Shown in pieces: positions 20,798 to 38,015 of a stretch of 64,000 nt of DNA. Location: the NCBI GenBank assembly GCA_035309945.1, contig DATGEQ010000106.1, forward strand, positions 143,503-207,502. Reading direction: 5' to 3'. The stretch's first letter is position 1. The number at the start of each line of letters is the position of its first letter. Source of the DNA: Gemmatimonadales bacterium (lineage in GTDB: Bacteria > Gemmatimonadota > Gemmatimonadetes > Gemmatimonadales > GWC2-71-9). Below the pieces are notes generated by a model. That model was given only the letters and a program-made list of their open reading frames with translations. It made no database searches and was not told the origin of the DNA. Made by a program: the position numbers and the translations under genes.

Positions 20798-20812
20798 CGG
20801 TGAGCCGGTGAG

Positions 20813-20863
20813 CCGAATGATCAATGATCATTGGTCATTGCTCAATGATCATTGATCATTCGG
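20813..20863. terminator. perfect 21-bp-stem, 9-nt-loop AT-rich hairpin between convergent genes (candidate bidirectional terminator or binding site)
   Basis: I paired 20813-20833 with 20843-20863 base by base without a mismatch. The stem contains four TGATCA cores. There is no flanking U-tract. Confidence 0.45.
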
Positions 20864-20873
20864 GCAGTCCGCA

Positions 20874-20964
20874 CGGAGAGGGGGGGATTCGAACCCCCGA
20901 TAGAGGAATTACCCCCTATAACGGTTTAGCAAACCGCCGCCTTCAGCCACTCGGCCACCTCTCC
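20874..20964 (-). tRNA. tRNA-Ser (anticodon GCU)
   Basis: The reverse complement folds as a class-II tRNA: acceptor GGAGAGG/CCTCTCC, anticodon loop TTGCTAA, a long variable arm and T-arm GGGGG-TTCGAAT-CCCCC. No CCA is encoded. Confidence 0.9.
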
Positions 20965-20965
20965 C
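20926..20965. repeat. attL: 40-bp perfect direct repeat (tRNA-Ser 5' half)
   Basis: TTAGCAAACCGCCGCCTTCAGCCACTCGGCCACCTCTCCC is identical to 36715-36754. Confidence 0.9.
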
Positions 20966-21010
20966 GGAAAACAGAAGTTCGCTTGCTGCATCGACTTGTT
21001 CAAGTGCGAC

Positions 21011-21033
21011 GAGGCCCCCGACCTGGGGGCCTC
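21011..21033. terminator. GC-rich hairpin (9-bp stem GAGGCCCCC / GGGGGCCTC, 5-nt loop)
   Basis: Perfect inverted repeat read from the sequence. It lies between the leftmost minus-strand genes of the element and the tRNA upstream region. The U-tract is weak. Confidence 0.4.
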
Positions 21034-21041
21034 ACTCGTTT

Positions 21042-21063
21042 GGCAACATTTCTGGTAACATTT
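21042..21063 (+). promoter_or_regulatory. candidate integrase arm-type sites (GGCAACATTT ct GGTAACATTT)
   Basis: A tandem decamer pair 76 bp inside attL. A near-identical pair lies at 36592-36610, 104 bp inside attR, in the same orientation. Confidence 0.45.
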
Positions 21064-21150
21064 TTGGGAGACGTAACGAGAGCAGGGCACCGCCGCGCGC
21101 GCGTGGGTTCGATGCGGTGATTCCTAGCTCTTGATCGCGCAGCGCATGAA

Positions 21151-21309
21151 TTATTCCTGCCACGTGTCGCCGACGGCGTTGAGGTTCAACGGGTGGCAAA
21201 CGCCGACCCAGGCCTGCGTCTCGGGATCGCGGAAGACCTCCCAGGCGAGATTGGCTTCAATGCGGACTTGTACAACTCGTGTGGGGAGCAGCTTCGACAG
21301 CAGCGCCAT
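21151..21309 (-). CDS. small HicB/DUF1902-like protein (52 aa)
   Basis: Below the ORF-track cutoff. GAAGGAG SD upstream of ATG 21309. VRIEANLAWEVFRDPETQAWVGVCHPLNLNAVGDTWQE resembles the N-terminal fold of HicB-type antitoxins. Confidence 0.45.
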   Translation of the reverse strand: MALLSKLLPTRVVQVRIEANLAWEVFRDPETQAWVGVCHPLNLNAVGDTWQE

Positions 21310-21404
21310 GCCTCTTCTCCTTCACGGTGAAATACCCCGGGATGGGGCAAACGGCGTGCCTAGTTAGGCGGTTCCTACAATACGGCCGAACGTTAGGCCT
21401 GGCG

Positions 21405-22091
21405 TCAAGGGCGCCGCGCACCCTGGTTACCCGACTTTACGCGCGGAAACTTGCGACGTTGCAGTGTGTTACATCTGGTTTTTCGACGCACGGTGCCTCG
21501 CGCGGCGTCCGGCCCTCGAGTAGGCTCGCGCCCGATCGCGATCACTCCACGATCGTCAACGAGTTCTAGCGCTGGGCCGTGCCGCAGTTTCTGCTGCAGC
21601 ACGCGCTCCCCACCCCTCACGCGCAATACCCTCGCCACCACTAGCCGCGCCGCCTTCTCGCGGACGATTGGCCAGCGCCGTGGTGACACTGCGAGCTGGT
21701 CCGCGGCGTGCTGAACGAGCGCACACATCCATGCTGGCGCGCCGACACGAAGCAGATGGGAGTGACCCCGTTGACGAGCGGCGTGGTAGTGGTCGAGCCA
21801 GGAGAGCACCCGGCTGTAGAGCCAAAAGAGCAGCAATCGATCAGGGATAGAACCGCGCCGGTGACTCGGGACTAGGCGCGACAGCAGGAACTCATTCCAT
21901 ACCGCTGGTCTCACCTTCAATTCTCGCAGAACAGCCGCTCGAGTCCGACCCTTCGGCTGGTCGCGGTCCGAGTAGGCCGACCACACCCCGGGAGATTCGA
22001 ACGGGTCGGCCGTCGGGGCACCAAAACCTGTTGCAGCGAACGCCGCGCAATCTGGGCAGGAGATGGGGTGATCCTTATGTGCAGGGTCCAC
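21405..22091 (-). CDS. hypothetical protein of the element (HPISCPDC Cys motif)
   Basis: 228-aa ORF, divergent from the plus-strand early operon. No domain recognised, and the C-terminal third is Arg-rich and less convincing. Confidence 0.4.
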   Translation of the reverse strand: MDPAHKDHPISCPDCAAFAATGFGAPTADPFESPGVWSAYSDRDQPKGRTRAAVLRELKVRPAVWNEFLLSRLVPSHRRGSIPDRLLLFWLYSRVLSWLDHYHAARQRGHSHLLRVGAPAWMCALVQHAADQLAVSPRRWPIVREKAARLVVARVLRVRGGERVLQQKLRHGPALELVDDRGVIAIGREPTRGPDAARGTVRRKTRCNTLQRRKFPRVKSGNQGARRP

Positions 22092-22110
22092 ACCCTAGAA
22101 TCTACCGCAA

Positions 22111-22329
22111 ATGGAACAGCGCCGCACCAAATCGCTCGACTTCTGGGTGACGCCCGATGAGTTGGAGTGCCTTCGTGCCGGCGCCCGGGCAGCCAGCTCC
22201 TCGCTCAGTGCGTTCGTCCGAGATGCCGCACTCCGCGCGGCCGAGCAGGTCCGTGGCATCGTCAAAGTCGAGCTCGGGCGTGATGAGGCAGAGGCGGTAC
22301 TCAAAGGTCTTTCAACAGAGAGGCGATGA
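22111..22329 (+). CDS. ribbon-helix-helix protein (DUF1778/TacA- or MobC-like)
   Basis: KSLDFWVTPDELECLRAGARAASSSLSAFVRDAALRAAEQV matches the RHH pattern R...I...V.PEE...I..AA...G.S.S.F.R.AAL..AE. Confidence 0.55.
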   Translation: MEQRRTKSLDFWVTPDELECLRAGARAASSSLSAFVRDAALRAAEQVRGIVKVELGRDEAEAVLKGLSTERR

Positions 22330-22330
22330 C

Positions 22331-22660
22331 ATGGAGAACGGCTCGGAGAAACCGACAGTCGAAGAGCTGGCGAAGCTTTTGAAAAAGGCCGCGCGAAAGG
22401 CCGCGCGAAAGGCCGCCAAAAAGATGGTCCGTGAGGAGCTGATGAAGCTTGCGCCGTCGCTCGCGATCGCGAGTGAGCTCGACGACGCAGAGGCTCGCGC
22501 GAAGGCCGGCAAGCCGCTGCGGAAGCGGCAGACGAAGTTGATCGAGAAGATCTACCAGACTGCGAAAGAAAACCCGGGCGAAGGCGAAGCCACGCTGCTC
22601 GAGAAGGTTGCTAAAGGCGCACGCCCCGCCGGCTCATCGGGCTACGCGGACGCGTTGTGA
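22331..22660 (+). CDS. hypothetical Lys/Ala-rich protein
   Basis: In-frame ATG 22331 lies 1 nt after the RHH gene stop. 109 aa and helical (AARKAARKAAKK). Confidence 0.45.
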   Translation: MENGSEKPTVEELAKLLKKAARKAARKAAKKMVREELMKLAPSLAIASELDDAEARAKAGKPLRKRQTKLIEKIYQTAKENPGEGEATLLEKVAKGARPAGSSGYADAL

Positions 22661-23178
22661 TTCCCTCGAGGCCTGGCGCGGAGCTCGAGCGGGGCGTGCT
22701 GATCCACGGAGAAGATTTCTCGTGGACCTGCCCTGGCTACGGCCAAGCGCATGATCTGCCGATCGCGAGCACACAGTGCGCGACGCACTCCCAGTGGCGG
22801 CCGCCGCTCATGTATCGCTGCAAAAAATGCCACCAGCCAGTCGAGCCGGGCGGCCCGCTCGCGGATTACCACTTCGGCTGTTCCAGTCTCAACCGCGGAC
22901 CGGCGCCTGTCGCCGAGACGAAGTACGCGAGACCGGCGCCGCGCGGCGAGGCGGAATACCGGCAAACACTCGCGCACGCCAACGAGCTGCACATCAGTCT
23001 CGGCGCCGAGCTTGAGCGTCTCGCGAGCTGTACGGGAAATGATCCGCACGGCGGCACGCCGTTCGTAAACGAGAAGGGCGAGGTCGTTGGGCGGCAGTCG
23101 CCGGCATTCCGTCGCTCGCTGACGATCATCGCAGCGCTCGAGCAGCTGGCGAAGGCGCTCGGCGGGATGGAGCGCTGA
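22657..23178 (+). CDS. hypothetical protein with CxxC motifs
   Basis: GTGA overlap with the upstream gene. 173 aa containing CKKCH and other Cys pairs. Confidence 0.5.
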   Translation: MIPSRPGAELERGVLIHGEDFSWTCPGYGQAHDLPIASTQCATHSQWRPPLMYRCKKCHQPVEPGGPLADYHFGCSSLNRGPAPVAETKYARPAPRGEAEYRQTLAHANELHISLGAELERLASCTGNDPHGGTPFVNEKGEVVGRQSPAFRRSLTIIAALEQLAKALGGMER

Positions 23179-23513
23179 TGGATCCGCGCTACCGGTGGCC
23201 TGACGGCCGGCCGCTTGCGGGCCCGTTCAACGTGCCCACGCGGCCCGACGTCGAGCCCGATCCGAGGAACAGGGATCCCGAGGTCAATACGCGCCTGCCC
23301 AACTATGACGCCGGCGTCGAGCTGCTCCAGGGATCGAGACCCGACGGCCGCGCGATAGGCAGCGACACGAAAGGTCTGCCCGCGTTCGATCCGAACGGAA
23401 GGACAATCACGCTGGCGGGGCCGAACCTGCCCCAGGCCACGCCGAACGACGTGAGGCTGCCCGATCCGCGCGACGTGCCGGTGGCCACGCCAACTCTGCC
23501 GAGCGAGCCCTAA
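23178..23513 (+). CDS. hypothetical protein
   Basis: The start overlaps the upstream stop by 1 nt (TGATG). 111 aa, proline-rich. Confidence 0.45.
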   Translation: MDPRYRWPDGRPLAGPFNVPTRPDVEPDPRNRDPEVNTRLPNYDAGVELLQGSRPDGRAIGSDTKGLPAFDPNGRTITLAGPNLPQATPNDVRLPDPRDVPVATPTLPSEP

Positions 23514-23525
23514 ACGGAGGCGAGC

Positions 23526-23768
23526 ATGTCGCTACCCGATGCGACGCAGGGCGCTGCTGCAGACGCGAGTCGCGATCGCCGATTGGCGAACGTGGCCGTC
23601 GACATGGACCAGCTGACGCCCGAATTCCTCGCGGCGCGCACGGCCGAGGCGAGCAACTACAACGCCAGCATGGACACGCTCGCCGCGGTGCGCGCGGAAC
23701 AGAAACGGACACACAACGAATCCGTCGGCCGGCCGGCGACAGGGACGGCCGCGCCGCTGAAGAAATGA
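23526..23768 (+). CDS. hypothetical protein
   Basis: 80-aa ORF with GGAGG upstream of ATG 23526. Confidence 0.45.
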   Translation: MSLPDATQGAAADASRDRRLANVAVDMDQLTPEFLAARTAEASNYNASMDTLAAVRAEQKRTHNESVGRPATGTAAPLKK

Positions 23769-23865
23769 CAGCGGGGGAGGTCGTCAGCGCGAGCCTAACC
23801 TCCTCGCCTGGCGGGCAACGGGCCAGGGTTGGCCCGCCTCCTCTGACCCTCAACAGGAAGGGACG

Positions 23866-24105
23866 ATGCCTTATCTCGGGCAGATCGTAATCGTGAACGA
23901 GGACCGCCTGACCGGCACTCAGGAGCGGCGCGCGGCGCCGCGCGGCCGACCGGGGATCATCACGAAGGTCAACGGCGACGGCACCATCAACGCTGTCGTC
24001 TTCAGCGATCGAAACGACGGACACATGGGGCGGTGCACGCAGGTCGTGCAGAACCGCGGCTACTCGCGCACGCCGACCTGGGGCACCTGGCGGGAAGCGG
24101 ACTAA
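23866..24105 (+). CDS. hypothetical protein
   Basis: 79-aa ORF with GGAAGGGA upstream of the ATG. Confidence 0.45.
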   Translation: MPYLGQIVIVNEDRLTGTQERRAAPRGRPGIITKVNGDGTINAVVFSDRNDGHMGRCTQVVQNRGYSRTPTWGTWREAD

Positions 24106-24165
24106 CCAAACGACAACGCCTCGAGCGGCGAACCTCGAGGTTACCGCAACAGGAGACACGATCAA

Positions 24166-24336
24166 ATGCCGCAGCGCGCGAGCCGACGCACACCATCCTC
24201 GGGTCCTCTCCCGGCTCGTGTCTCCGGGCGGGGCGCAAGCGGGTCGGTGGGCCCGGCCCATGCGGATCGGTCGTACTCGGATTGGGAGAGCGTGTACCGA
24301 TCGGAGCGCGGCCGGGGACGGGAGCCGCGGTGGTGA
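24166..24336 (+). CDS. possible small ORF (56 aa, Arg/Ser/Gly-rich)
   Basis: AGGAGA SD upstream of ATG 24166. The stop overlaps the GTG of the next gene (GTGA). Composition is weak for a real protein. Confidence 0.3.
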   Translation: MPQRASRRTPSSGPLPARVSGRGASGSVGPAHADRSYSDWESVYRSERGRGREPRW

Positions 24337-26081
24337 GTGCGTTGAAACCGCGGAAACCGGGCATCTGCGTCGAGCGGTCGGCGACGCTGATTCGGTATCG
24401 CTACGAGAGCGAATCCGCGCCGGGCACCTTCTACGACACCCGGCTCCTCGCCCAGGGTGACCTCTGCGAGTGCTGGGGCTTCCGCAAGTGGCAGAAGTGC
24501 TGGCATCTGGAGGACGCGTGGGCGCAGGAGAGAGCGCGCGGCAACGGCAACGCCGGCACGGCAACGCCGGCGCCGGCCGACGCCATGAGCACCGGTCCTG
24601 GAATGGCCGATCGCGACGTGCCGCCGCCAGAGCCGCCGACCCCTCGAGCATCGACGAGTCCTGTCGTGGGAACGATCCCGCGCAACGTGGTTGAAGACGA
24701 AACCTCCGTCCTGAGTGCGATCCTCACGAGCCATGTCGTGCCGGCTGCGGTCCGCGCGCGGCTGCACCCGAATGTTTTTCAGCGTGAGAGTCACCGGCTG
24801 ATCTACGGCGCAATGCTCGCGCTCGCGGCTCGCGGTGAGCCGATCGACCCGCACACCCTGCGCGCGGCCCTCGACGGCAACCTCGATCGTGCCGGCGGCA
24901 TGGAGTACCTCGCGACGCTGATCGACGTCGTGCCGACGGCCGATCACATCGACGCGCACGTCTCCCTGATCCTCGAGCACCACCGCCGGCGCACGATCAC
25001 CCAGCTCGGCGCCGAGCTCGCCGGCGACAAGCTCTCACCGGCGCAGATGCGCGACGCGATCGCGAAGCTCCAGGAGCTCGCGGTCGACGAGCAGACCCGC
25101 GCGCGGTTCCGGCTCCTGTCTGTCAGTGAGCTGCTCGCGTTGCCCGCGCCGGCCTGGCTGCTCGAGCGCTACCTCCCGATCGGCGGCCTCAGTGTGCTCT
25201 ACGGCGCGCCGGGATCCGGCAAGAGCTTCGTCGCCCTCGCCTGGGCGCTGAGTGTCGCCGCCGGCCAGCCGTGGATCGATTCGCAGACGGTCCAGGGCCG
25301 CGTCATTTACGTCGCGGCTGAGGGCAGCAGCGGACTCGGCAAACGCATCGCGGCGTACACCGATAGCCGCGCGCTCACCCCGGACGGCATCCAGTTCATC
25401 CGTGAACCCGTGAATCTCGGGGAGCCGCGCGACGTCGACGCCCTCGTGGCAGGCGCGGCCGCGGCGCAGCCTGCGCTTGTCGTGATCGATACGCTCTCGC
25501 GATGCATGGAGAGTCTCGACGAGAACAGCCCCGAGGACATGGGACGCGTCATCGCCGGCGTCGATCGCATTCGACGCGCGACCGGTGCGCACGTAGTGCT
25601 CGTCCATCACGCGGGTTGGAGTACGAACGAGCGGCCCCGCGGGCACTCGTCGCTCGTCTGCGCCGCGGATGCCGTGTTCCTCTTGAAGAACGACACCGGC
25701 GTGCTGACGCTCGAGTTCTCAAAACCGCATAAGGACGCGCCACCGATCGAGCCGCTGCAGCTTCGGCTCGTCCCGATCGGAGAGAGCTGCGTCGTCGAGC
25801 CCCAGGACTCGCTCACCGCCATCAGCGAGCTCGAAAAGAGCGATCGCCTGGCGCTCGAAGCCCTGAACGCGATCGCCGTCGGCGACGGTGCCACGAAGAG
25901 CGAATGGCTGTCGGCGGCCACGGAACGGAAGGGGAAAACGTCTCACATGGGGCGTGCGACATTCTACCGTTGTCTCAAGCGGCTGTGCGACAGAAAACTC
26001 GTCGCATGTGAGACAAACGGGAAACAGGCCGAACGCTACTCGCTGACGGGCAAAGGGATTAGCGCGTGCGCCGTCTCATAG
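24333..26081 (+). CDS. replication protein: SWIM zinc finger, DnaB N-terminal-like domain, RepA/AAA_25-type RecA-fold ATPase and C-terminal wHTH
   Basis: CECWGFRKWQKCWH matches CxCxnCxH. A DnaB-N-like block follows (VLSAIL...IYGAMLALAARGEPIDPHTL). Walker A is GAPGSGKS and Walker B is LVVIDTLS. The start could be GTG 24330 or 24333; it is uncertain. Confidence 0.7.
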   Translation: MSALKPRKPGICVERSATLIRYRYESESAPGTFYDTRLLAQGDLCECWGFRKWQKCWHLEDAWAQERARGNGNAGTATPAPADAMSTGPGMADRDVPPPEPPTPRASTSPVVGTIPRNVVEDETSVLSAILTSHVVPAAVRARLHPNVFQRESHRLIYGAMLALAARGEPIDPHTLRAALDGNLDRAGGMEYLATLIDVVPTADHIDAHVSLILEHHRRRTITQLGAELAGDKLSPAQMRDAIAKLQELAVDEQTRARFRLLSVSELLALPAPAWLLERYLPIGGLSVLYGAPGSGKSFVALAWALSVAAGQPWIDSQTVQGRVIYVAAEGSSGLGKRIAAYTDSRALTPDGIQFIREPVNLGEPRDVDALVAGAAAAQPALVVIDTLSRCMESLDENSPEDMGRVIAGVDRIRRATGAHVVLVHHAGWSTNERPRGHSSLVCAADAVFLLKNDTGVLTLEFSKPHKDAPPIEPLQLRLVPIGESCVVEPQDSLTAISELEKSDRLALEALNAIAVGDGATKSEWLSAATERKGKTSHMGRATFYRCLKRLCDRKLVACETNGKQAERYSLTGKGISACAVS

Positions 26082-26166
26082 TCTCACGGCGTCTCACGTC
26101 CGTCTCACGTTGCGGTGAGACTGTCTCACCACCTGGGGGGGCTTATGTATAGCCCCCAGGTGAGAC
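26073..26166 (+). repeat. iteron-like array: 5 direct GTCTCA(C) copies, 2 inverted GTGAGAC copies and an embedded long inverted repeat (candidate origin or Rep-binding region)
   Basis: Direct copies start at 26073, 26081, 26091, 26102 and 26123. Inverted copies lie at 26115-26121 and 26160-26166. The inverted repeat is GTCTCACCACCTGGGGG...CCCCCAGGTGAGAC. Confidence 0.6.
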
Positions 26167-26367
26167 ACGCAGTCCCGGGACAGCTGCCTTTGCAGTCGTC
26201 TGCAAAGCCGCTTGCCCACGCGCCTGCGTCCCCGGTGGGCGCTCGGAAGGTACAGCGGCGCCCGCATATGCCTCACGTTGTTGCCCGCCGTGTTGCCGGG
26301 GTCCGGAAGCGCTGCCGTCGTGCGGCTGATCTGAAGCCAGCAAACACGCGAACCGCTGGAATGAGCC

Positions 26368-26766
26368 GTGGCTGAGCGCACGCTAAGCGCGCTCCGAGCA
26401 TGGGTCGAAGCGGCGCCGCCCGGTACGCTGGTGCCGGCCGCGGCGATCGCCCAGGCGCTGGCTGAGACGGCTGTGCAGACGTCTGCAAACACGCCGGCGC
26501 CGGTGTCCTGGCGCGAGCGGCTGTGGACTTGTCCACCCGAGACGCGGCTCGGTGTCGCCGAGCTGTGCGAAGCGATCGGACGGCCGAAGTCCTGGGTGTA
26601 TCGGCACACCGGCCCGAACAGTCCCGGCGCACGGATCCCGCACCGCCAGCTCGAGGGCGAGCTCGTGTTCGTCGCCGGCGAGCTGCGGCAGTACCTCACC
26701 GAACACGAGACGGTCGTTGTGCCGGGTCGCACGGGCAGTCTCGTCGTTCAGCGGCGGCACGCGTGA
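26368..26766 (+). CDS. excisionase/AlpA-type helix-turn-helix protein
   Basis: LGVAELCEAIGRPKSWVYRHT....IPHRQLEGELVFVAGELRQYL resembles the Xis/AlpA (MerR-like HTH) family. GTG start. Confidence 0.6.
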   Translation: MAERTLSALRAWVEAAPPGTLVPAAAIAQALAETAVQTSANTPAPVSWRERLWTCPPETRLGVAELCEAIGRPKSWVYRHTGPNSPGARIPHRQLEGELVFVAGELRQYLTEHETVVVPGRTGSLVVQRRHA

Positions 26767-27026
26767 ATCACCGCGCCTGCCTCGACAGCTTCACGGGGCT
26801 CGTCGGGTCCATGGATCAGCTCGTCGTCGATCTGAGAGCAAACGGTTGCGCTTCGCTTGCCGATCGCATCATCGGTCTAATGGACCGTCTCGGGAATGCG
26901 CTTCGGGAGAATATGTTGCTGCACAAGCGGGCTGAATCGAGCGATCTTCGCGTCGCCCAGCTGCTCTCCGAGCTTCGGCGGGTTCAGGACGAACTGACCG
27001 GCTTGTTGGAGGGGGACGCGTCGTGA
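26763..27026 (+). CDS. hypothetical coiled-coil protein
   Basis: GTGA overlap with the upstream stop. 87 aa. Confidence 0.45.
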   Translation: MNHRACLDSFTGLVGSMDQLVVDLRANGCASLADRIIGLMDRLGNALRENMLLHKRAESSDLRVAQLLSELRRVQDELTGLLEGDAS

Positions 27027-27265
27027 TCGTCTGCACGGTGTGCGGCGAAGGTCCGAACGATCGCGGCGCCCTGGTCCAGCTCGAGGACGCTACCGGCCTT
27101 CCGTTCTGGGCGCACTACAGCTGCACCGAACCCCAGCGCGCGATCGCCGTCTGCGTGCGCTGTGGTGAGGGCGACTCGATCCGCGTCGGCTGTCTCGTTC
27201 GGATCGGTGCGCGCTGGGCGCATCGCGCGTGTGTCACGTCCGCGCGCACCGCGAAGGCCGCATGA
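27023..27265 (+). CDS. hypothetical Cys-rich (zinc-ribbon-like) protein
   Basis: 80 aa with CTVCGEG and CVRCGEG pairs. The start overlaps the upstream stop. Confidence 0.5.
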   Translation: MIVCTVCGEGPNDRGALVQLEDATGLPFWAHYSCTEPQRAIAVCVRCGEGDSIRVGCLVRIGARWAHRACVTSARTAKAA

Positions 27266-27564
27266 CGCTGTCGACGGTGCAGGCGCGCAAGATGGCGAAG
27301 CGGCTCGGGCAGTTTCGCTCGAAGCTCACGCTCTCCGACATCGAAGAGGCGCTGCCCGAGCTGAACGACCCCGCGGCCGCGAATGCGTGGCTGGAGAAAG
27401 CGTACATCTGGGCCGCCTCGGGAAAGATTCCGGGCACAGTCGCGAATGCGTGCGTCCGCGCCGTTGAGGTCTGGCTCAAGAGTTACGACCTGGCGAAGGT
27501 GACGGCACGGATCCGCGAGCTCGAGCAGCAGCTCGCCGAGGCGAACCGGAGGCGCGATGCCTGA
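27262..27564 (+). CDS. putative terminase small subunit (assigned by position only)
   Basis: ATG 27262 with a GAAGG SD. 100 aa, helical with a C-terminal coiled coil. Lies immediately upstream of TerL and overlaps it. Confidence 0.4.
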   Translation: MTLSTVQARKMAKRLGQFRSKLTLSDIEEALPELNDPAAANAWLEKAYIWAASGKIPGTVANACVRAVEVWLKSYDLAKVTARIRELEQQLAEANRRRDA

Positions 27565-29185
27565 GCGCCACGATCGCCGACTCGACGCGGTGAAGCGCAA
27601 ACTCGACCGCGACCAGCCGCGGCCCGAGCCGCCGGCCGATCGCGAAGGGTTCGAGCAGGATCTGCTCGCGTTCGTGCGTGCCGGGTGGCAGGTGCTCGAG
27701 CCGCGCCGGCCGTTCGTCGTCAACTGGCACCACGAGCTGCTCGCTGAGTATCTGACGGCCGTCAGCCGCCGGCAGATCCTCAAGCTGATCGTGAACGTGC
27801 CACCCCGCTTCACGAAGAGCCGGTTTGCGACGGTGCTGTGGCCGTGCTGGTCCTGGGCGAAGGCGCCGGAACACTCCTGGATCTTTGGCTCGTATGCCGC
27901 CGGCCTGTCGACGCGGCACTCGCTCGACCGGCGCACGGTACTGCAATCCGACTGGTATCAGCAGCGCTGGGGCGAGCGCGTCGCATTCGCGCCCGATCAG
28001 AACGTGAAGCTCTGGTACGAGAATCAAGCGCGCGGCACGATGTACGCGACGTCGACGGGCGGCACGGTGATGGGGTTCGGCGCCGACACGATCGTCGTCG
28101 ATGACCCGCACGATCCTGAGAGCGTGCTGTCGGAGACCGAGCGCGAAACGGCGCTGCGCTGGTTCGATCAGCAGTTGTCGACGCGGCTCAACGATCCGGC
28201 CACGGGCGCGATCGTCGTCATCATGCAGCGCCTGCACCAGGCGGATCTCACTGGCCACCTCCTCGAGGAAGGCGATTGGACGCACGTCGCCTTGCCCGCG
28301 GAATCGGAAGGGCCGACACGCATTGTGTTCCCCGTGTCGGGCCGCGTGGTCGAGCGCGCGGACGGTGCGCTGCTGTGGGCTGAGCGGTTCACGCAGGCGG
28401 TGCTCGACAAGCAGCGGATCCGCCTCGGCAGCTGGGCCTACGCCGGCCAGTTCCAGCAGCGGCCGACGCCATTCGGCGGCGGGATCTTCAAGCGCGACTG
28501 GTTCCGCTTCTACGACGTGACGCCGACGCTCTTCGACAGCTCGGTGGCGTCCTGGGATCTCGCGTTCAAAGAGACCAAGGGCACGGACTACGTCGTCGGC
28601 CAGGTCTGGGGCCGCAAAGGGGCGAACTGCTATTTGCTCGACCAGGTCCGCGGCCGCTGGGACTTTCCGACGACGGTGCAGCGGATCCGCGAGCTCGCCC
28701 GCAAGTGGCCCGGCGTGATGACGAAGCTGGTCGAGGACAAGGCGAACGGGCCGGCCGTGATCGCGACGCTCAAGAACGATATCGGCGGCATGATCGCCGT
28801 GAACCCCGAGGGCGGAAAGATCGTGCGCGCGCAAGCGGTGTCGGCGCTGATCGAGGCCGGCAACGTGCTGTTGCCGCAACCTGCGCTGCAGCCGTGGGTG
28901 AAGGACTTTCTCGACGAGGCGAGTGCGTTTCCCGCCGGCCGCTTCGATGACCAGGTCGACGCGATGACGCAGGCACTGCGCCGGCTCGTCGGCGCGGGCG
29001 ATGCGAAGGCCTGGGCCGCGGCGTTTTGGGGCCTGCGGCCCGAGGATCTGCCCGACAAGCCCCTCGTGCCGCTGCCGGCAGTCGGCGCCGCCGGCGCGTC
29101 GTTCCGCGAGCTGAATCCGGTCGACGGCTCGTTCGGCAAAGCTGGCGCCGCGGTGCCACTCCCGGGAGGGAATAGGCTCACATGA
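27557..29185 (+). CDS. phage terminase large subunit
   Basis: ATPase part: PPRFTKS (Walker A-like) and IVVDDPHDPE (Walker B). The nuclease part ...SWDLAF.....DYVVGQVWG......YLLD..RGRW.F......I..L..KWP.......VEDKANGPAVI......FDDQVDAMTQAL is typical of this TerL family. Confidence 0.85.
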   Translation: MPERHDRRLDAVKRKLDRDQPRPEPPADREGFEQDLLAFVRAGWQVLEPRRPFVVNWHHELLAEYLTAVSRRQILKLIVNVPPRFTKSRFATVLWPCWSWAKAPEHSWIFGSYAAGLSTRHSLDRRTVLQSDWYQQRWGERVAFAPDQNVKLWYENQARGTMYATSTGGTVMGFGADTIVVDDPHDPESVLSETERETALRWFDQQLSTRLNDPATGAIVVIMQRLHQADLTGHLLEEGDWTHVALPAESEGPTRIVFPVSGRVVERADGALLWAERFTQAVLDKQRIRLGSWAYAGQFQQRPTPFGGGIFKRDWFRFYDVTPTLFDSSVASWDLAFKETKGTDYVVGQVWGRKGANCYLLDQVRGRWDFPTTVQRIRELARKWPGVMTKLVEDKANGPAVIATLKNDIGGMIAVNPEGGKIVRAQAVSALIEAGNVLLPQPALQPWVKDFLDEASAFPAGRFDDQVDAMTQALRRLVGAGDAKAWAAAFWGLRPEDLPDKPLVPLPAVGAAGASFRELNPVDGSFGKAGAAVPLPGGNRLT

Positions 29186-29544
29186 GCGACACACCGAAGC
29201 CGAACACCGGCGCGGACTGGGTGGCCTTCACGCGCGGGGAAGCGCTCCACAAACACGGCGTGCGCTTCTCGGATCCCGACGTGGCCTATCCGCCGGCGTG
29301 CCCCGACTGCGGCCGCGCCGAGCGCTGGGTCCGCGTGCACGTCACCGGCGATACGCCGGGCCGCACCGACGTCGTGAACGGGCGACTGGTCGCGGTGCCC
29401 GCGCGGCGATCGAGCGTCACGATGTACTGCTACTTCTGCGCGCGCCAATTCACCTACGGCGGCGAGCTGTTCACCGACCAGGAGCAAGCGGCGCGGACCG
29501 GGAAGCTCTGGCAACAGTCCAAACTTGGAAAGGTGCCACTATGA
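29182..29544 (+). CDS. hypothetical zinc-ribbon protein
   Basis: 120 aa with CPDC...CYFC. ATGA overlap with TerL. Confidence 0.5.
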   Translation: MSDTPKPNTGADWVAFTRGEALHKHGVRFSDPDVAYPPACPDCGRAERWVRVHVTGDTPGRTDVVNGRLVAVPARRSSVTMYCYFCARQFTYGGELFTDQEQAARTGKLWQQSKLGKVPL

Positions 29545-29954
29545 CCACCGCAGTCGAGCAACTCGAAAACGGTGTCCGCGTGCAGTGCACCGACGGTGCG
29601 ATCGTCGTCTGCAAGTCGCTGACCCTCCAAGCTGCCAAGCAGATCATCACGCTCTGGAGAAAACGCTTCGCGCCGCGGCCGCCCGTCAGCGACCCACCGA
29701 CCGACGCCGAGCGGCGGGCGGTGACGGCGTGGGCGATCGGTGTCGCGGATGCGCGAGTCGAAGTGGTCGACGTCTTCGGTACGCTCTATCCCGAGCTCGC
29801 CGCTCATATCTCGCCGGGCGACGTCGAGTCGCTGCTGCCGGATTTTTTCTGGCTCGCGACCGGCGCGGCCGTGCCGGCGACGACGGACCCCCTGACTGGG
29901 ACGCCGCCTACGCCGCCTACTGCGCCGCCTGGGGCGAGCTCCCCGACCCCATGA
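29541..29954 (+). CDS. putative tail assembly chaperone (G-like)
   Basis: 137 aa, immediately upstream of the tape-measure-like gene. Contains the slippery heptamer, and the -1 frame is open through to 30103. Confidence 0.55.
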   Translation: MTTAVEQLENGVRVQCTDGAIVVCKSLTLQAAKQIITLWRKRFAPRPPVSDPPTDAERRAVTAWAIGVADARVEVVDVFGTLYPELAAHISPGDVESLLPDFFWLATGAAVPATTDPLTGTPPTPPTAPPGASSPTP

Positions 29955-30103
29955 TGCCGTATCCGGAGTTCCTGTTGCGTCAACGCGGCGCCGCAATACG
30001 GCAACTCCTCCTTGTCCATGCGGTGCAACTCGCGCAGGCCACCCGGGACGATCTGGGGGCCGTCTCCGCATTCGCGCAGCTGAGGGAGGCTGCCAATGGC
30101 TGA
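29541..30103 (+). CDS. putative -1 frameshift product (GT-like tail assembly chaperone), about 187 aa
   Basis: In the zero frame, T_TTT_TTC at 29843-29849 encodes D-F-F. The -1 frame continues FFLARD... to a stop at 30101-30103, overlapping the start of the tape-measure-like gene (30096). Confidence 0.5.
29843..29849 (+). promoter_or_regulatory. candidate -1 programmed ribosomal frameshift slippery site T_TTT_TTC
   Basis: I checked codon phasing by hand: GAT(29841) TTT TTC TGG in the G frame. Confidence 0.5.
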
Positions 30104-31466
30104 CAACACGGTCGATCTTGCCGTCCGCTGGGCCGAAGCGGGCCAGGACGTTCCCCGGAGGACGGCCGAGAACCTCCAAAACCTCCAGCGCTCCGCAGAG
30201 GGTGCCGGCACGTCGATCGGCGACCGGCTGACGGGAGCCTTTGCCCGCTTCGAAGCGCGCCAGCCGACGATGGTGATTCGTCGGACGGCTCTGGCGCTCG
30301 AGGAGCTCGCGGGGTCCGCGCTCGGCGCCACGGGCCCGGTTGGCCGGATCGCCGAAGCGCTCGTGGGGCTCGGCGGTGCGGAAGGGTTGCTCATCGCGGG
30401 CGGCATTGCCGCGATCGGTCTCGCCTGGCACGAAGTGAGCCAGGAGGCTGACCTCGCCGCCTCGAACGTCGAAGCGGCAGCGAAGCGGATGCACGACGCG
30501 ATCGGCAAAGCGGTCGCGGAGCACCGCGGCGAAGGGCCGGAAGGACGCGCGGACTTCACGCGCGCCATTGCCGAAGCGCAGGCCAAGCTCGCCGCGATCG
30601 AAGCGTCGGCGGTGCCGGCGGCGGTGACGCGCAGCATCTACACGCCCTACGGCTACTCCACGTCCGTGGACACGAGCGCGGCCGAACAGCGGCAGCAGAA
30701 CATCGACAATCTCAAGACGCTGATCGGGCAACTCACCGCCGGCCTCGCGGAGCTGGACAACGAGGCGAATAAGACCGCCGAGCAGGGCCTGCGGCGCGTG
30801 CGCGAGGAGGTGGACAGTCTCGGTGCGAGCATCACGCAGTTCGTGTCGTCGGGACAATTCCAGCTCGCCATCTCGAGCATCGCGATCCCGTCCCTGAAGG
30901 ACATCCTGGGCATCCCCGGCGGGTTCAGTGCGGCGAGCGTGGGCGAGCGCAAGCGCGCGGACATGGACATCCTGGGTCCCATCATCGGCAAGTCGGACAT
31001 CGTCGAAGGCAAAGCCGCCCTCGAGAAGGCGTCGCGCACCGACCCGCGCGAGGGACGGGAGTTCGAACGGCTCGCCGGCGCGCTCGAGCGCGGCATCACC
31101 ATGATGGCGAGCGCGCGGAGCGGCAACGTGGGCGCGGCCGCGCTCGGGGCGTTGGGGGAGACCGCCACGACGGCCAGCGGACTCACCAAGCTGTTCAAGC
31201 TGTCCACCGAGGACACCAAGACCCTCGGGCTCCTCGGGTTTGGGCTCTCGACCGCGTCGAGCCTGCTGTCGATCCTCGGCGGCCATCACCACGAGGTCAA
31301 GATCAATGCCTTCAGCGAGCAGGCGCTACAGCAGATGCGCGAGACGCGCGGCGATCCACTAACGATGGTGCTTGACATCATCGCGGCGATCGGCGCGAGC
31401 CCGCGCACGATGCAGCAGCAGCTCGGCCGCCTGTCGCGCGCGGGCGTCATCACGAGGTTCCCGTGA
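30096..31466 (+). CDS. putative tape measure protein (short, 456 aa)
   Basis: GAGGGAGG SD. Ala/Gly-rich helical protein with hydrophobic segments, placed after a G/GT-like pair. Confidence 0.5.
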   Translation: MADNTVDLAVRWAEAGQDVPRRTAENLQNLQRSAEGAGTSIGDRLTGAFARFEARQPTMVIRRTALALEELAGSALGATGPVGRIAEALVGLGGAEGLLIAGGIAAIGLAWHEVSQEADLAASNVEAAAKRMHDAIGKAVAEHRGEGPEGRADFTRAIAEAQAKLAAIEASAVPAAVTRSIYTPYGYSTSVDTSAAEQRQQNIDNLKTLIGQLTAGLAELDNEANKTAEQGLRRVREEVDSLGASITQFVSSGQFQLAISSIAIPSLKDILGIPGGFSAASVGERKRADMDILGPIIGKSDIVEGKAALEKASRTDPREGREFERLAGALERGITMMASARSGNVGAAALGALGETATTASGLTKLFKLSTEDTKTLGLLGFGLSTASSLLSILGGHHHEVKINAFSEQALQQMRETRGDPLTMVLDIIAAIGASPRTMQQQLGRLSRAGVITRFP

Positions 31467-31771
31467 CCGACTACGCGATCGACCTCCCCGACTGGGAGAC
31501 CTACGCAGCGTTACCCCACGAGGAGCGCAACGCGCTCGTGCAGGCGGAGATCGTGCGCACGGGCAGGGCCCTCAACGTCGACACGTCGGCCTCCGGACGT
31601 GCGCGATTCTTCGCGATGTGGCGCGCGTGGCTGGACGGTGCGGGGGTTCACGCCAAGACCGAGACTGAGCGGGCGGCATTTGAGGTTGCGCAGCAGCTGT
31701 TCAATCTCGCGGAGGCGACGGTGAAGGAGAATTATCCCTTAGGACACGACGAACGGGAGAACCTCGAATGA
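31463..31771 (+). CDS. hypothetical protein (tail module)
   Basis: GTGA overlap with the upstream gene. 102 aa. Confidence 0.45.
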   Translation: MTDYAIDLPDWETYAALPHEERNALVQAEIVRTGRALNVDTSASGRARFFAMWRAWLDGAGVHAKTETERAAFEVAQQLFNLAEATVKENYPLGHDERENLE

Positions 31772-32565
31772 CGCTCTGCATCTCCGTCGCCCTGCCCGAG
31801 CTCGCCCTCGTCGCGTCGACGACGCGCGTGTCGCACACCGGCCCGGGCGGCGAGTGGCTCGGTCCGCGCGAAGATCGCACGGGCGAGTTCGTGAATGTGC
31901 GCCGCGTTGGCGGCGGACCCGCGCGCAGCGGTTGGTGCGCGACGTTCGGCGCGCCGGTGACGTGGTCCGCGCGCGTCTTCGCCGAGCTCGAGCAGGTGAA
32001 CGCCGACGACGTCGACCAGGTCGCGCGGACTGTTGCCGGCGCAACCGAATGGTGCGTCGACCAGGGCCTCGAGCGGCGGATCCCGCCCGAGGAGCAGAAT
32101 CCGGAACGCTGGCCCGGCGGTGTGCAGCTCGTGCATCCGTGGCCCTGGGGCTTCGTGCGCGCGACGGTCTACGGGCAAGGCGAGATCTGGGGCAGGGAAT
32201 ACCCGATCGCGTACTCGCCACCGATCGAGCTGCGCACCGGCGGCCTGCCGCAGAATCTGCGCGACGGATTCGCCGCGGCCGTCGCCGGCAATCGCACGCT
32301 CGCCGCCGTGCTGCGCGCGACGGCGCAGCTGTTCCACACCGTCTATGAGCTCACCGATCGCGAAGCCGGCAGTATCGGTCAGCTCGTCGAAGTCGGGATT
32401 TTGCGCATCGAGATGCTGCCGGGCCAGCGTTGGCAGCTGAACCTCGATTACGTGCGGCCGACCCGGGCCGCCATTCTCGCCGGCGTCGCAGACGCCGAGC
32501 TCGCCGCACTCATCCGGCGCGTCGACCCGCTCCCTCTCGTGGAGGACGCCCATGCTGCTCGTTGA
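31768..32565 (+). CDS. hypothetical protein (tail module, possibly a distal tail component)
   Basis: ATGA overlap with the upstream gene. 265 aa. Confidence 0.45.
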   Translation: MTLCISVALPELALVASTTRVSHTGPGGEWLGPREDRTGEFVNVRRVGGGPARSGWCATFGAPVTWSARVFAELEQVNADDVDQVARTVAGATEWCVDQGLERRIPPEEQNPERWPGGVQLVHPWPWGFVRATVYGQGEIWGREYPIAYSPPIELRTGGLPQNLRDGFAAAVAGNRTLAAVLRATAQLFHTVYELTDREAGSIGQLVEVGILRIEMLPGQRWQLNLDYVRPTRAAILAGVADAELAALIRRVDPLPLVEDAHAAR

Positions 32566-33376
32566 GCCGACACTCGAGGACCTGCTCACACTGTCGACCG
32601 GCTACAATACACAGGTCAGCATGGTGCCGTTCGTGAACGGGCTGAACGGTCTGTTCACCTGGGCGACCGGCGGCCCGAGCTCGGGACAGATGTGGCTCTC
32701 GTTCACCTGGTCCGCAACAACACTCACCCGCGCCGACCAGTCGACGCTCAGCCTCGCGGCACCGCCGAGCGCACTCGCGGCCCCGTCCGTGACGACGTTC
32801 GCCGGTGGGGCGCTCGGCGCGCGGACGCTGTTCGCGCGAATCGCCTACGTGCGGAGCGACGGCGACTATTACTCATTGTACGCGGTGAGCGCCGAGCAGC
32901 CGAACATTGCCGTCGGTGCGAACAACCTCCTGCAAGTGAACAGCCCGGCCGATCCGGGCGGTGGGCAGTACGCCGGCTGGATACCGCTCGTCGGGTCCGC
33001 CGCGAACGGCGAGAAGGTGCAGCTGCAGACGGTCCCGATTCCGTTCGGCACCAACTGGCAAGAGCCGAGCGGCGGCTTCGACACGACGCAGACGCCGTAC
33101 TCGACGAGCTGGAAGTCGCCAGGTGTGACACTGATTCAGATTCCAGCGAACCCGCAGATCGTCTACGCCTACCCGTATCTGCACACGTGGAGCATGGTCG
33201 TGCGCTTTCCAGTCAAAGGCGCGATCACGCCGGGCACGGCGATCGTGCAGAACGGCGACGGGAACGCGGCGTTGACGAGTTTCATCTTACCCTACCTCAA
33301 CTACTCCGCCGGCATCACGATGCCCGCGGCCAACAACACGGGATCCGGCACGGGTGGCGGAGGTCGCTGGACATGA
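32552..33376 (+). CDS. hypothetical protein (possible tail fibre or receptor-binding protein)
   Basis: 274 aa, Ser/Thr/Gly-rich and beta-like, ending in a Gly-rich tail. Assignment rests on position only. Confidence 0.4.
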   Translation: MLLVEPTLEDLLTLSTGYNTQVSMVPFVNGLNGLFTWATGGPSSGQMWLSFTWSATTLTRADQSTLSLAAPPSALAAPSVTTFAGGALGARTLFARIAYVRSDGDYYSLYAVSAEQPNIAVGANNLLQVNSPADPGGGQYAGWIPLVGSAANGEKVQLQTVPIPFGTNWQEPSGGFDTTQTPYSTSWKSPGVTLIQIPANPQIVYAYPYLHTWSMVVRFPVKGAITPGTAIVQNGDGNAALTSFILPYLNYSAGITMPAANNTGSGTGGGGRWT

Positions 33377-33708
33377 TACGACGTCTCTTCGTCGCGCCGC
33401 ACGACGTGCTCGACCAGGTCCGACTCAGTGGGTGCGAAGTGATGGGAATCGACGGCTCGACTGTCCTGCTCGCGGTGACGTCGGCCACGTTAACGGCGGA
33501 CCAGGAGGATGCGTTGCTCGCCGTCGCCGGCGTGCTCGAGCTGCATCCGTGGAACCAGGACAATCCCGCGCCGCCGGCGTTGTCGGCCGCGATCGCGGGG
33601 AGCTCAGTCCCTTCGTTGCAAGCCTTCGCCGCCGCAAACAAACTCGCCGCGCCAACACTGGCCGCGGCGATCAAAGCGGTGGGTCGCAATCTCTCCTGGT
33701 ATCGCTAG
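33373..33708 (+). CDS. hypothetical protein
   Basis: ATGA overlap with the upstream gene. 111 aa. Confidence 0.45.
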   Translation: MIRRLFVAPHDVLDQVRLSGCEVMGIDGSTVLLAVTSATLTADQEDALLAVAGVLELHPWNQDNPAPPALSAAIAGSSVPSLQAFAAANKLAAPTLAAAIKAVGRNLSWYR

Positions 33709-34079
33709 CAGGGGGTCTGCGTCGGAGCGAGGTTCACGTCGGGCGAGCTGCCGGTCGGGATGACGATGGCGTGCCACGCCGGGAACGAGTCGGGATGGAA
33801 CCAGGGCGCGGTATAGACGGCCGTGAGCGGGTTGCCGTTGTTCGGGTTCGTCGCATCGACTTCGAAATACGCGCTGTCCGGCCGCGCGGTGAAGCGCTCG
33901 CAGCGCTCGGTGCGCCCGGGCACCGTGTCGGCGCCGGCGACGCCCTGGCCGTCGCGCCAGGCGAAGTCGACCGGCCAGTCGGTGTTGTTCGTGATGAGCA
34001 CGGACGGATCGTGGTTGGCAGGGCCGGTGCTATTCGAGCACGCGGCGAGCACGGCGAGAAGCGCGAGACTGTAACGCAT
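33705..34079 (-). CDS. lipoprotein on the opposite strand (moron-like)
   Basis: ATG 34079 preceded by AGGAGG. Signal and lipobox MRYSLALLAVLAAC. Confidence 0.65.
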   Translation of the reverse strand: MRYSLALLAVLAACSNSTGPANHDPSVLITNNTDWPVDFAWRDGQGVAGADTVPGRTERCERFTARPDSAYFEVDATNPNNGNPLTAVYTAPWFHPDSFPAWHAIVIPTGSSPDVNLAPTQTPC

Positions 34080-34147
34080 AGGCCCTCCTGGGGCTACGTT
34101 TTCCGCCTTCAATCCTAACCGGAGGGGTACTTGCGGCGCAAGAGGCC

Positions 34148-34166
34148 TGCCCCAATAATTGGGGCA
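34148..34166. promoter_or_regulatory. 19-bp palindrome TGCCCCAAT-A-ATTGGGGCA in a divergent intergenic region (candidate operator)
   Basis: Perfect 9-bp arms, read directly. Lies between the lipoprotein gene (-) and the HTH gene (+). Confidence 0.4.
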
Positions 34167-34190
34167 CGATCTACAACTAGGCTACGCACC

Positions 34191-34403
34191 ATGCTTGCCA
34201 AAGTGCTCTTGTACGCCGCCCCGTCCCTTCGGGAAATCGCCAAGGAAGCGGGCATCACCGAAGCCGCCATGCGTGAGTACGTGAAGGCTCGTCGCACGGC
34301 GCCGCCGGCCGTCATTCGCCGGCTGGTGGCCGTGTTGCGCGCGCGCGGCGGGAAGCTTCGGACGTTGGCGGCGCAGCTCGAGCGCCAGGCTGGCGGGCGG
34401 TGA
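34191..34403 (+). CDS. small helix-turn-helix regulator
   Basis: 70 aa from ATG 34191. SLREIAKEAGITEAAMREYV looks like an HTH. Confidence 0.5.
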   Translation: MLAKVLLYAAPSLREIAKEAGITEAAMREYVKARRTAPPAVIRRLVAVLRARGGKLRTLAAQLERQAGGR

Positions 34404-34428
34404 CGTGGCCTCCCAACGAGGAGGACAG

Positions 34429-36654: not shown

Positions 36655-36714
36655 AACGGGAGATTTGTAGCGGAATCGAGTCGGGTAGAGCAGGGCGCAA
36701 CGGGTCTGGATCAA

Positions 36715-36754
36715 TTAGCAAACCGCCGCCTTCAGCCACTCGGCCACCTCTCCC
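36715..36754. repeat. attR: 40-bp perfect direct repeat (orphan copy of the tRNA-Ser 5' half)
   Basis: Identical to 20926-20965. The sequence to its left cannot complete a tRNA fold. Confidence 0.9.
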
Positions 36755-36802
36755 CGGGACGGAAGTTCGCGAGTCAGTTGAGGATGAGCAAGTCACAAGG
36801 CA

Positions 36803-37990: not shown

Positions 37991-38015
37991 TGCCGCCTTT
38001 ACTGGAATCCGTGCT

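Follow-up and report, generated by a model that had tools for sequence, protein, structure and literature searches.

The 64,000-nucleotide (nt) stretch of contig DATGEQ010000106.1 from a Gemmatimonadales bacterium, which was analysed as a whole and is hereafter called the window, contains a phage-like integrative element of about 15.8 kb that abuts a tRNA-Ser gene with the anticodon GCT, tRNA-Ser(GCU). In our judgement, this element very probably integrated at the anticodon loop of the gene in reversed orientation, supplying the 5' half of the tRNA together with a promoter-like region of its own. The reading is built on an exact repeat of the tRNA 5' half at the two ends of the element, on the layout of the same locus in element-free relatives, on promoter-like boxes found at equivalent positions upstream of both tRNA copies, and on the arrangement next to the closest homologs of the element's integrase.

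The tRNA gene and its partial copy

ARAGORN and Rfam (RF00005, 59.9 bits) agree on a tRNA-Ser gene with its 5' end at 20964 and its 3' end at 20874, on the minus strand, as an earlier, sequence-only reading of the window had placed it. The sequence itself shows the acceptor stem (GGAGAGG/CCTCTCC), the GCT anticodon and the long variable arm; the CCA end is not encoded in the DNA. A repeat search of the window returned an exact direct repeat of 40 nt, 20926–20965 and 36715–36754, whose copies are referred to as the left and right attachment sites (attL and attR). With 20964 as nucleotide 1 of the tRNA, the repeat comprises tRNA nucleotides 1–39 and base −1, exactly the 5' half and one upstream base that had been claimed for it. 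Searched for with up to three mismatches, a 33-nt part of the repeat was found only at the two repeat sites of the window, where no match was expected (100 shuffles); nor did a window search find a third, degenerate copy of the tRNA 5' half.

The limits of the repeat suggest where recombination may have taken place. Its inner end (20926–20932, TTAGCAA on the plus strand) is exactly the 7-nt anticodon loop, and the block of identity ends precisely at the 3' edge of this loop in both copies (20926 and 36715). The crossover would thus have fallen within the loop. Neither ARAGORN nor Rfam calls a tRNA at the attR copy. Because Rfam calls none there, the copy is taken as an orphan tRNA fragment, nucleotides 1–39 occupying 36715–36753 on the minus strand at a spacing of 15,789 bp from the intact copy.

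The site in element-free relatives

Relatives were gathered by a genome scan with a 482-amino-acid (aa) protein that is encoded to the left of the tRNA (19349–20797, plus strand), next to GluRS (17998–19311, minus strand). The homologs are 58–80% identical, and no strain of the same species is among the relatives compared. At eight loci (L001, L007, L043, L003, L006, L002, L004 and L010), the 482-aa homolog is directly followed by tRNA-Ser(GCU), on the same strand as in the window. The GluRS gene completes the pair in six of them (L001, L043, L003, L006, L002 and L010), and the L007 and L004 loci, where the tRNA likewise follows the 482-aa gene, stop short of it. Further on, a tRNA-Ser(UGA) gene is found 2.8–9 kb beyond tRNA-Ser(GCU) in L001, L002, L003, L004, L006, L007 and L043; the L010 locus contains none. 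To the right of the element, the window has two GT4 glycosyltransferase genes, MscS, DJ-1, a CarboxypepD_reg protein and then tRNA-Ser(UGA) at 44499–44581; on this side a CarboxypepD_reg homolog is present in most relatives and MscS in two. With the 15.8 kb taken out, the window has the same layout as the relatives. The site is unoccupied in L001, L007, L043, L003, L006 and L010, each of which has one tRNA copy, with a single 5' half, and no element.

These comparisons bear on several points of the sequence-only reading, whose structural claims all hold. It had put the element upstream of the intact gene, which agrees with the strand and the left-hand neighbours that the tRNA shares with the relatives. 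It had also argued that the 5' side of the intact tRNA abuts element DNA, and synteny with the element-free relatives bears this out; because the element lies upstream, the intact tRNA can be transcribed only from element DNA. For the orientation of the tRNA it had proposed the GT4 gene as the point of reference. This gene is not conserved, so the GluRS and 482-aa flank was used, relative to which the tRNA is on the same strand in all; the opposite orientation, which would have refuted the reading, was thus not seen.

The 3' side of the tRNA is chromosomal, because L001 and L003 also have the motif aatgatcaatgatca at this position downstream of the tRNA, and L004 has a variant of it, aatgatcatggatca. 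In the window this position is taken by a palindrome, which is probably a host terminator or processing hairpin. The right side is more variable. No GT4 homolog is present at this locus in the relatives, several of which have an M61 peptidase or other genes instead, and the two GT4 genes have a GC content at third codon positions (GC3) of 0.73–0.75, lower than their neighbours. In addition, a 224-aa open reading frame (ORF) at 39175–39849 (minus strand) looks like the truncated N terminus of a TonB-dependent receptor (CarboxypepD_reg and Plug), which suggests a rearrangement; 36803–39849 is accordingly regarded as variable or rearranged. On this account, what lies to the right of attR may not be the ancestral promoter.

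Promoter-like sequences upstream of both copies

Outside the repeats, 8 nt beyond attL and 7 nt beyond attR, the 9-mer GAAGTTCGC occurs at 20974–20982 and 36762–36770, the positions previously given for it. In tRNA sense (GCGAACTTC) it spans −10 to −18 at attL and −9 to −17 at attR; the earlier 'about −8 to −17' had the location right and the numbering 1–2 nt off. The 9-mer is found at these two sites only on both strands of the window, for which about one copy would be expected. When 60-nt flanks were compared, a shared run of at least 9 nt within a register of ±3 nt was seen in 71 of 20,000 random window pairs and 15 of 20,000 shuffles. A match by chance (0.1–0.4%) is unlikely, not overwhelmingly so.

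The relatives suggest what the block might be. In L001, L007, L043, L003 and L006 the tRNA is preceded by cTTGCTC-17 nt-GATAAT-10 nt-G(+1), a clear sigma-70-type promoter, and in L010 by TTGCCG and GATACT. In an ungapped alignment of these six native promoters with the two window copies, the attR copy reads TTGCTC (36791–36786)-17-GAACTT (36768–36763)-9 nt-G and the attL copy TTGAAC (21003–20998)-17-GAACTT (20980–20975)-10 nt-G. The CTTG of the −35 box and the pattern G.GA...T at −10 are invariant in all eight sequences, and the boxes of the element and the chromosome occupy equivalent positions. The attL and attR copies have unrelated 17-nt spacers, so that their similarity is limited to the promoter boxes and the tRNA-proximal stretch; from −18 to −1 the copies are ~72% identical, with differences that are mostly T/C. 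The 9-mer thus corresponds to a −10 region with 3 flanking nt, and its position supports a promoter reading, in which both regions would be active as promoters. The suggestion that the block is a conserved promoter element stands as far as its place is concerned, since it aligns with the native GATAAT. It falls as far as conservation is concerned: the comparison with upstream regions of element-free relatives, which had been proposed with it, recovered a promoter at this position and GATAAT instead of the shared block.

Several observations weigh against this interpretation. GAACTT matches TATAAT at 2/6 positions (A2 and T6), and a consensus promoter scan around both sites finds nothing. Because the consensus scan for promoters and terminators is empty, the promoter reading rests on the comparison with relatives. 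The 9-mer is not conserved in the clade and is specific to this element–host pair, and the orphan flanks in L169 and L170 are without it. On the chromosome side, the promoter spacer is unlike that of any relative, and the −10 box differs from every relative, though even at 58% protein identity the relatives have retained GATAAT or GATACT. To the right of attR, the DNA, with GT4 genes that are missing at the relatives' locus, is not clearly ancestral. As to the integration model set out below, neither a same-species empty site nor an attP junction was recovered, and no capsid, portal or tail gene was recognised among the element ORFs by Pfam or PHROG. As for the direction of copying between the promoter-like regions of the element and the chromosome, it could have been either way.

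Some further features of these upstream regions were noted. In L002 (11503–11560), L004 (2085–2140) and L170 (3905–3935) they are of another type, gccgCTAAGTT (CTAATTT in L002), with the box ~14–18 nt before the tRNA 5' end and no TTGCTC/GATAAT pair; the CTAAGTT box recurs ahead of the element-borne 5' part of tRNA-Ser(CGA) in L191. At tRNA-Ser(UGA) (44582–44660 in the window), the −10 region is TACTTT, as opposed to TAGGTT in 7/7 relatives; tRNA-Ser(GCU) is therefore not the only locus at which the tRNA promoters of this organism depart from those of its relatives. A promoter-like region remains attached to the orphan 5' half and is aimed antisense into the 3' end of the integrase gene (36715–36800 versus 35464–36654), which might allow antisense control of that gene. 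No terminator-like structure is found between the orphan and this gene (fold z = +0.6), and Rfam is also empty there. In the excised form, the element's own promoter-like region would be aimed antisense at the integrase gene too.

An integrase family with canonical and reversed members

The tyrosine integrase of the element has more than 368 homologs at E < 1e-20. Its own clade is 77–80% identical inside and 65–72% identical to the rest of the family. In the closest integrases, P0002 (80%) and P0003 (77%), both from other hosts, the homologous P arm is followed by the same antisense orphan 5' half of tRNA-Ser(GCU). The reversed 5'-half arrangement is thus conserved in the closest clade. Canonical arrangements are found next to other members: after the integrase stop codon of P0010 and P0007 (66%) comes the sense 3' half of tRNA-Cys(GCA), and P0004 (68–69%) lies beside an intact antisense tRNA-Ser(UGA), the 3' end of which faces the integrase gene. 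No target could be recognised for P0005 (L186), P0012 (L167) and P0013 (L168), and a search of viral contigs with the window integrase gave no matches.

Every recognisable junction in the family is at an anticodon loop, followed on the integrase strand by ACC (TTAGCAA-ACCGCC in the window, TTTCAAG-ACCGCC for P0004 and CTGCAAA-ACCTCG for P0010). Homology of the window's P arm with L169, L170, L163 and L187 extends to ..CAA just ahead of the loop, and the P arm of the window clade is most like that of the tRNA-Cys elements. A survey of crossover sublocations among related integrases, as the sequence-only reading had recommended, therefore gives recognisable sites that are all centred on the anticodon loop, with the reversed half in the closest clade; a single derived switch to the reversed site in this clade is plausible. 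Since the orphan flanks of L169 and L170, in other hosts, carry no 9-mer, the 9-mer is unnecessary in the chromosomal site (attB) for recombination.

A model for integration and its possible origin

In the model we favour, the element would have recombined with the tRNA-Ser(GCU) gene at the anticodon loop. Its own site, attP, would carry tRNA nucleotides 1–39 on the integrase-distal P' arm, rather than the usual 3' portion, and on the same arm a promoter-like TTGAAC-17 nt-GAACTT, which stops ~10 nt short of the mature 5' end and has a strong hairpin on its far side. Integration would join the chromosomal 3' portion to the 5' portion and promoter of the element, giving an intact gene at attL and, presumably, a functional hybrid tRNA. 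The chromosomal 5' half and its promoter (TTGCTC-17-GAACTT) would be displaced by 15.8 kb to a place beside the integrase gene, as the orphan at attR, and the GCGAACTTC block would be the −10 region of both promoters. The junctions to be expected are ..ATAACGGT-TTAGCAA-ACCGCC..CTCTCCCCGGGACGGAAGTTCGC for the empty attB and ..CTGGATCAA-TTAGCAA-ACCGCC..CTCTCCCGGAAAACAGAAGTTCGC for attP.

How might a reversed arrangement have arisen within a canonical family? We tentatively suggest a strand-flipped change of target, an origin that we hold to be possible rather than probable. Read on the integrase strand, the tRNA-Cys elements have ..GGATCAAA-CTGCAAA-ACC and the window clade ..GGATCAA-TTAGCAA-ACC, with homologous P arms. 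An ancestor might have read the anticodon stem-loop of tRNA-Ser(GCU), a quasi-palindrome, on the opposite strand and recombined with it; the adjacent chromosomal arm, consisting of the 5' half and the promoter, could then have been captured by aberrant excision and become the new P' arm. The upstream region of the element would resemble a host tRNA promoter because the captured arm became the P' arm.

Alternative explanations

The identity of the two GCGAACTTC blocks could also be a by-product of common descent or of patchy gene conversion, rather than of promoter selection. Thus, the right flank of attR might come from an earlier related element or have been imported with the GT4 block, or RecA-mediated conversion might have spread from the 40-bp identity. 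The variable region right of attR, with its atypical composition and GT4 genes (GC3 0.73–0.75) that the relatives lack, would fit such a history, as would a chromosome-side spacer and −10 box that differ from all relatives, even from those at 58% identity that keep GATAAT/GATACT. The ~72% identity between −18 and −1, with mostly T/C changes, is also what homologous DNA would show. We nevertheless consider this explanation unlikely, if by no means far-fetched, since the conserved positions are exactly the −35 and −10 columns, and the 8 nt between core and block differ, which is unexpected for a conversion tract from the core. Moreover, the window contains neither a third copy of the tRNA 5' half nor a second integrase to mark a tandem or older island, and with the GT4 stop codon 48 nt from the orphan, a P' arm with hairpin and repeats would not fit in between.

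Pure chance, with the intact tRNA read from another element promoter or by read-through, is very unlikely. An empirical frequency of 0.1–0.4% is not negligible for a finding picked out of a scan of the entire window, the 9-mer would be expected about once in such a stretch, and the hexamers are weak. However, both occurrences in 128 kb of two-strand sequence fall 8–9 nt upstream of the two tRNA 5' ends, a −35-like CTTGnnC is found at identical spacing in both copies, and analogous elements have extended upstream similarity. It is highly improbable, too, that the 9-mer is a site for a recombination protein (an integrase arm domain, an excisionase or an IHF-like factor) needed on both partners. 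Its distance of ~45–55 bp from the presumed crossover lies within a typical attP size, and the P' and B' arms have it in identical form. As a rule, however, arm-type sites are confined to attP, integrases of 77–80% identity used the same tRNA where the B' flank is without the block (L169 and L170), and the block is exactly where the relatives have their −10 hexamer. Finally, a misassigned strand or anticodon, which would make the repeat a canonical 3'-side duplication, is next to impossible given the agreement of two independent tRNA callers, the readable stem, anticodon and variable arm, and the same orientation in all relatives.

Other candidates were set aside. A tandem or older island at attR is not supported, given the lack of a third 5'-half copy and of a second integrase in the window and a distance of 11 nt between GT4 stop codon and −35 box. 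The 9-mer was rejected as the crossover site on the proximal flank of attR, which is closer to the relatives' native sequence than that of attL, and on L169 and L170, which are without the block. The idea that a 5' half would give a broader host range than a 3' half was dropped as well, both hybrids needing the same complementarity of acceptor and anticodon stems.

Parallels in other elements

An exact-pattern scan of IMG/VR with the tRNA-Ser(GCU) 5' half returned 13 loci. In L175 (=L183), L176, L177 and L180 (=L182), orphan 5' halves lie 3–21 kb from the ends of viral contigs of 39–69 kb (L175 2586–2619, L176 6200–6233, L177 1020–1053 and L180 8380–8413) and could be either attP or attR. Each of them adjoins a tyrosine integrase and is preceded by sigma-70-like TTGACG, TTGACC or TTGAAA, then TAAGGAT, TACGGCT or TAAGAT. 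In L175, L176 and L177 the tRNA fragment reaches nucleotide 43. In the provirus IMGVR_UViG_3300050821_012639, the tRNA and an orphan 5' half lie at opposite ends, and the attL/attR similarity continues ~45 nt upstream of the tRNA. In L171, L172 and L178, an integrase gene is located immediately upstream of the intact tRNA and is co-directional with it.

Homologs of the helicase led to a second element of the reversed type, at tRNA-Ser(CGA) and with an unrelated integrase (L190 1–130 and L191 479–2250). L191 resembles an attP junction, in which integrase, CTAAGTT box, 5' part of tRNA-Ser(CGA), P' arm and helicase follow one another, and in L190 the same 5' part is joined to host DNA, 47 nt past the 3' end of another tRNA gene. 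The same helicase search reached L189, on a contig from another metagenome, the attL junction and left end of which are 100% identical to those of the window and represent the same lysogen. Terminase searches of viral and metagenome contigs found relatives of ≤50% identity only, none with a related integrase, and for that reason gave no second attL/attR pair for the integrase family.

The integrases of these parallels fall into three further lineages, at ≤30% identity to the window integrase, so that environmental data repeatedly contain elements that bring their own upstream region along with a tRNA 5' half. Integrases of at least three unrelated lineages are found beside a tRNA-Ser 5' portion, with clearly reversed geometry for two, and this recurrent 5'-side use of tRNA-Ser genes by unrelated integrases is modestly new.

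Some metagenome contigs end at or near an element border. In L189 and L190 the break falls within the target tRNA, L166 and L168 start just upstream of the integrase gene, and L165 starts 8.6 kb upstream of it. Such breaks are an assembler outcome when lysogens and non-lysogens, or several elements at one site, coexist.

The element and its neighbourhood

The features of the element and its surroundings are collected in Table 1. The translated integrase shows the HxxR and Y motifs. Seventeen other element ORFs tested have no significant Pfam or PHROG family; the only other match among them is to a tape-measure protein, below threshold, at 30096–31466. Phage-like but small at 15.8 kb, the element may be a complete phage, a satellite or a remnant such as a defective prophage.

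The hairpin of the P' arm is possibly an insulator or terminator, and could insulate the tRNA promoter. Beyond it are direct repeats, and similar ones (CGGCAAACATTA / CGGCAAACATCC) are found in the P' arm of L191 (about 1790–1815), despite the unrelated integrase there and a helicase that is 57% identical. The P'-arm repeats of the window and L191 may be iterons or operator sites of the replication module, not integrase arm sites. A 12-nt unit, AAGGCCGCGCGA, occurs in about three tandem copies in the early region of the element (22385–22419).

Table 1 Coordinates of the features discussed, in window numbering
Feature	Position	Strand	Basis and remarks
Host palindrome of AATGATCA units, near-perfect, directly 3' of tRNA-Ser(GCU)	20807..20869	-	Fold z = -6.85
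Intact tRNA-Ser(GCU)	20874..20964	-	ARAGORN, Rfam; nt 40-91 host DNA, nt 1-39 in the repeat, further upstream element DNA
Anticodon loop, TTGCTAA in tRNA sense; presumed crossover/overlap region	20926..20932	-	Edge of identity; family junctions at anticodon loops
attL copy of the 40-bp core repeat, tRNA nt 39-1 and base -1	20926..20965	.	Repeat search
Phage-like integrative element without its repeats, 15,749 bp	20966..36714	.	Integrase, helicase-primase, terminase; segment absent from syntenic relatives
Element-side GCGAACTTC block with putative -10 hexamer GAACTT at 20975-20980	20974..20982	-	Aligns with native GATAAT
Element-side putative -35 hexamer TTGAAC, 17 nt upstream of GAACTT	20998..21003	-	Sequence; CTTG columns invariant; no consensus-scan call
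GC-rich hairpin (GAGGCCCCC, 5-nt loop, GGGGGCCTC) directly upstream of the element-side -35 box	21011..21033	.	-27.1 kcal/mol, z = -3.5
Direct repeats GGCAACATTTCT / GGTAACATTTTT in the P' arm; candidate protein-binding sites	21042..21065	+	Sequence
Helicase-primase, DnaB N-terminal and AAA_25 domains	24330..26081	+	Pfam; phrog_906; P0121 100% identical
Large terminase subunit	27557..29185	+	phrog_38 E = 3e-110; Terminase_6C
Tyrosine integrase, 396 aa, reads toward attR	35464..36654	+	PF00589 E = 3e-23; phrog_1 E = 1e-49; start codon matches P0001
P arm of the att site, element DNA from integrase stop codon to core	36655..36714	+	Homologous to L169, L170, L163, L187
attR core repeat, orphan 5' half of tRNA-Ser(GCU), nt 39-1 and base -1	36715..36754	.	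Antisense to the integrase gene
Chromosome-side GCGAACTTC block with putative -10 hexamer GAACTT at 36763-36768	36762..36770	-	Ungapped alignment
Chromosome-side putative -35 hexamer TTGCTC, 17 nt upstream of GAACTT	36786..36791	-	Same as the -35 box in 5/6 aligned relatives; TTGCCG in L010
GT4 glycosyltransferase gene, first gene of the non-conserved block	36803..38116	-	Pfam; from its stop codon, 11 nt to the -35 box and 48 nt to the orphan

Place among known tRNA-targeting elements

Islands with a displaced 5' fragment of a tRNA gene (tDNA) were reportedly first described by Zhao and Williams in 2002, and the anticodon-loop ('A') crossover sublocation of canonical tRNA-integrating elements is said to have been described by Williams in the same year. 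What defines the 5'-fragment, or 'reversed target orientation', class is the displacement of a fragment from the 5' portion of the gene, with element DNA abutting the 5' end of the intact gene. Of the 3919 islands in Table 1 of Islander, 3760 have a 3' tDNA fragment and 159 a 5' fragment (Hudson, Lau & Williams 2015, PMC4383910), and 2083 islands are of class A, with anticodon-centred att sites (PMC4383910). The window element has the features of an Islander tDNA island: an integrase inside, a full tDNA and an end-fragment in the same orientation, a length within 2–200 kb and a site that is unoccupied in relatives. Its configuration is that of the 5' type, with the 5' fragment (36.7 kb, minus strand) upstream of the tRNA 5' end at 20964. 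Because the 5' fragment lies upstream of the intact tDNA, such an island must supply the 5' part of the gene and its promoter. The element is thus a member of a minority class that is already documented, rarer than the canonical one and less unusual than the sequence-only reading had implied.

Like the 5'-fragment islands of Islander, the element has its integrase within, an intact tDNA at one end and a direct 5' fragment upstream. What sets it apart is that it comes from Gemmatimonadota and lies at tRNA-Ser(GCU). Here both copies of the putative promoter boxes can be aligned with the promoters of element-free relatives; the equivalent positions of putative element-borne and chromosomal promoter boxes are modestly new. 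With canonical anticodon-loop elements (P0004; P0010/P0007) it shares the integrase family (65–72%), a homologous P arm and a loop followed by ACC. Those elements, however, carry the tRNA 3' portion and leave the host promoter in place, whereas the window clade carries the 5' portion and a putative promoter. That canonical and reversed members occur in one integrase family with a shared P arm is modestly new as well.

Archaeal elements are known that use the 5' side of tRNA genes, e.g. CalSub-E1 in a tRNA-Ser gene (Krupovic et al. 2019, PMC6563490). They resemble the window element in the side used and, in that one case, in the tRNA, but belong to another domain of life and have other integrase families and archaeal rather than bacterial promoters. 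The tRNA-dependent lysogeny of mycobacteriophages is another non-canonical way to integrate in a tRNA gene without losing its function; there the junction does not restore the tRNA, and a full gene for a tRNA of that isotype is part of the phage genome (PMC10865867). In the window, by contrast, the tRNA is restored at attL, and within the element (20966–36714) no complete tRNA is called by ARAGORN, which led us to reject this mode for the window element.

Implications

If the strand-flip origin outlined above were true, att sites would evolve repeatedly and predictably through such flips, at least four integrase lineages of ≤30% identity being found beside a tRNA-Ser 5' portion. In that case, every lysogen would also carry a promoter-bearing tRNA 5' half firing antisense into the integrase gene. 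As it stands, a tRNA that is likely essential would depend on a putative promoter borne by the element, and a promoter-like tRNA half is aimed at the integrase gene; neither effect on transcription changes the general picture of tRNA-targeted integration.

Island-finding tools that assume 3' fragments would misplace the borders of an element such as this, for which the window offers a clean and checkable example of the 5'-fragment class in a poorly studied phylum. Its integrase family, with canonical and reversed members and a shared P arm, provides a system for studying how tyrosine integrases change target and orientation, a change that also bears on integrase bioprospecting.

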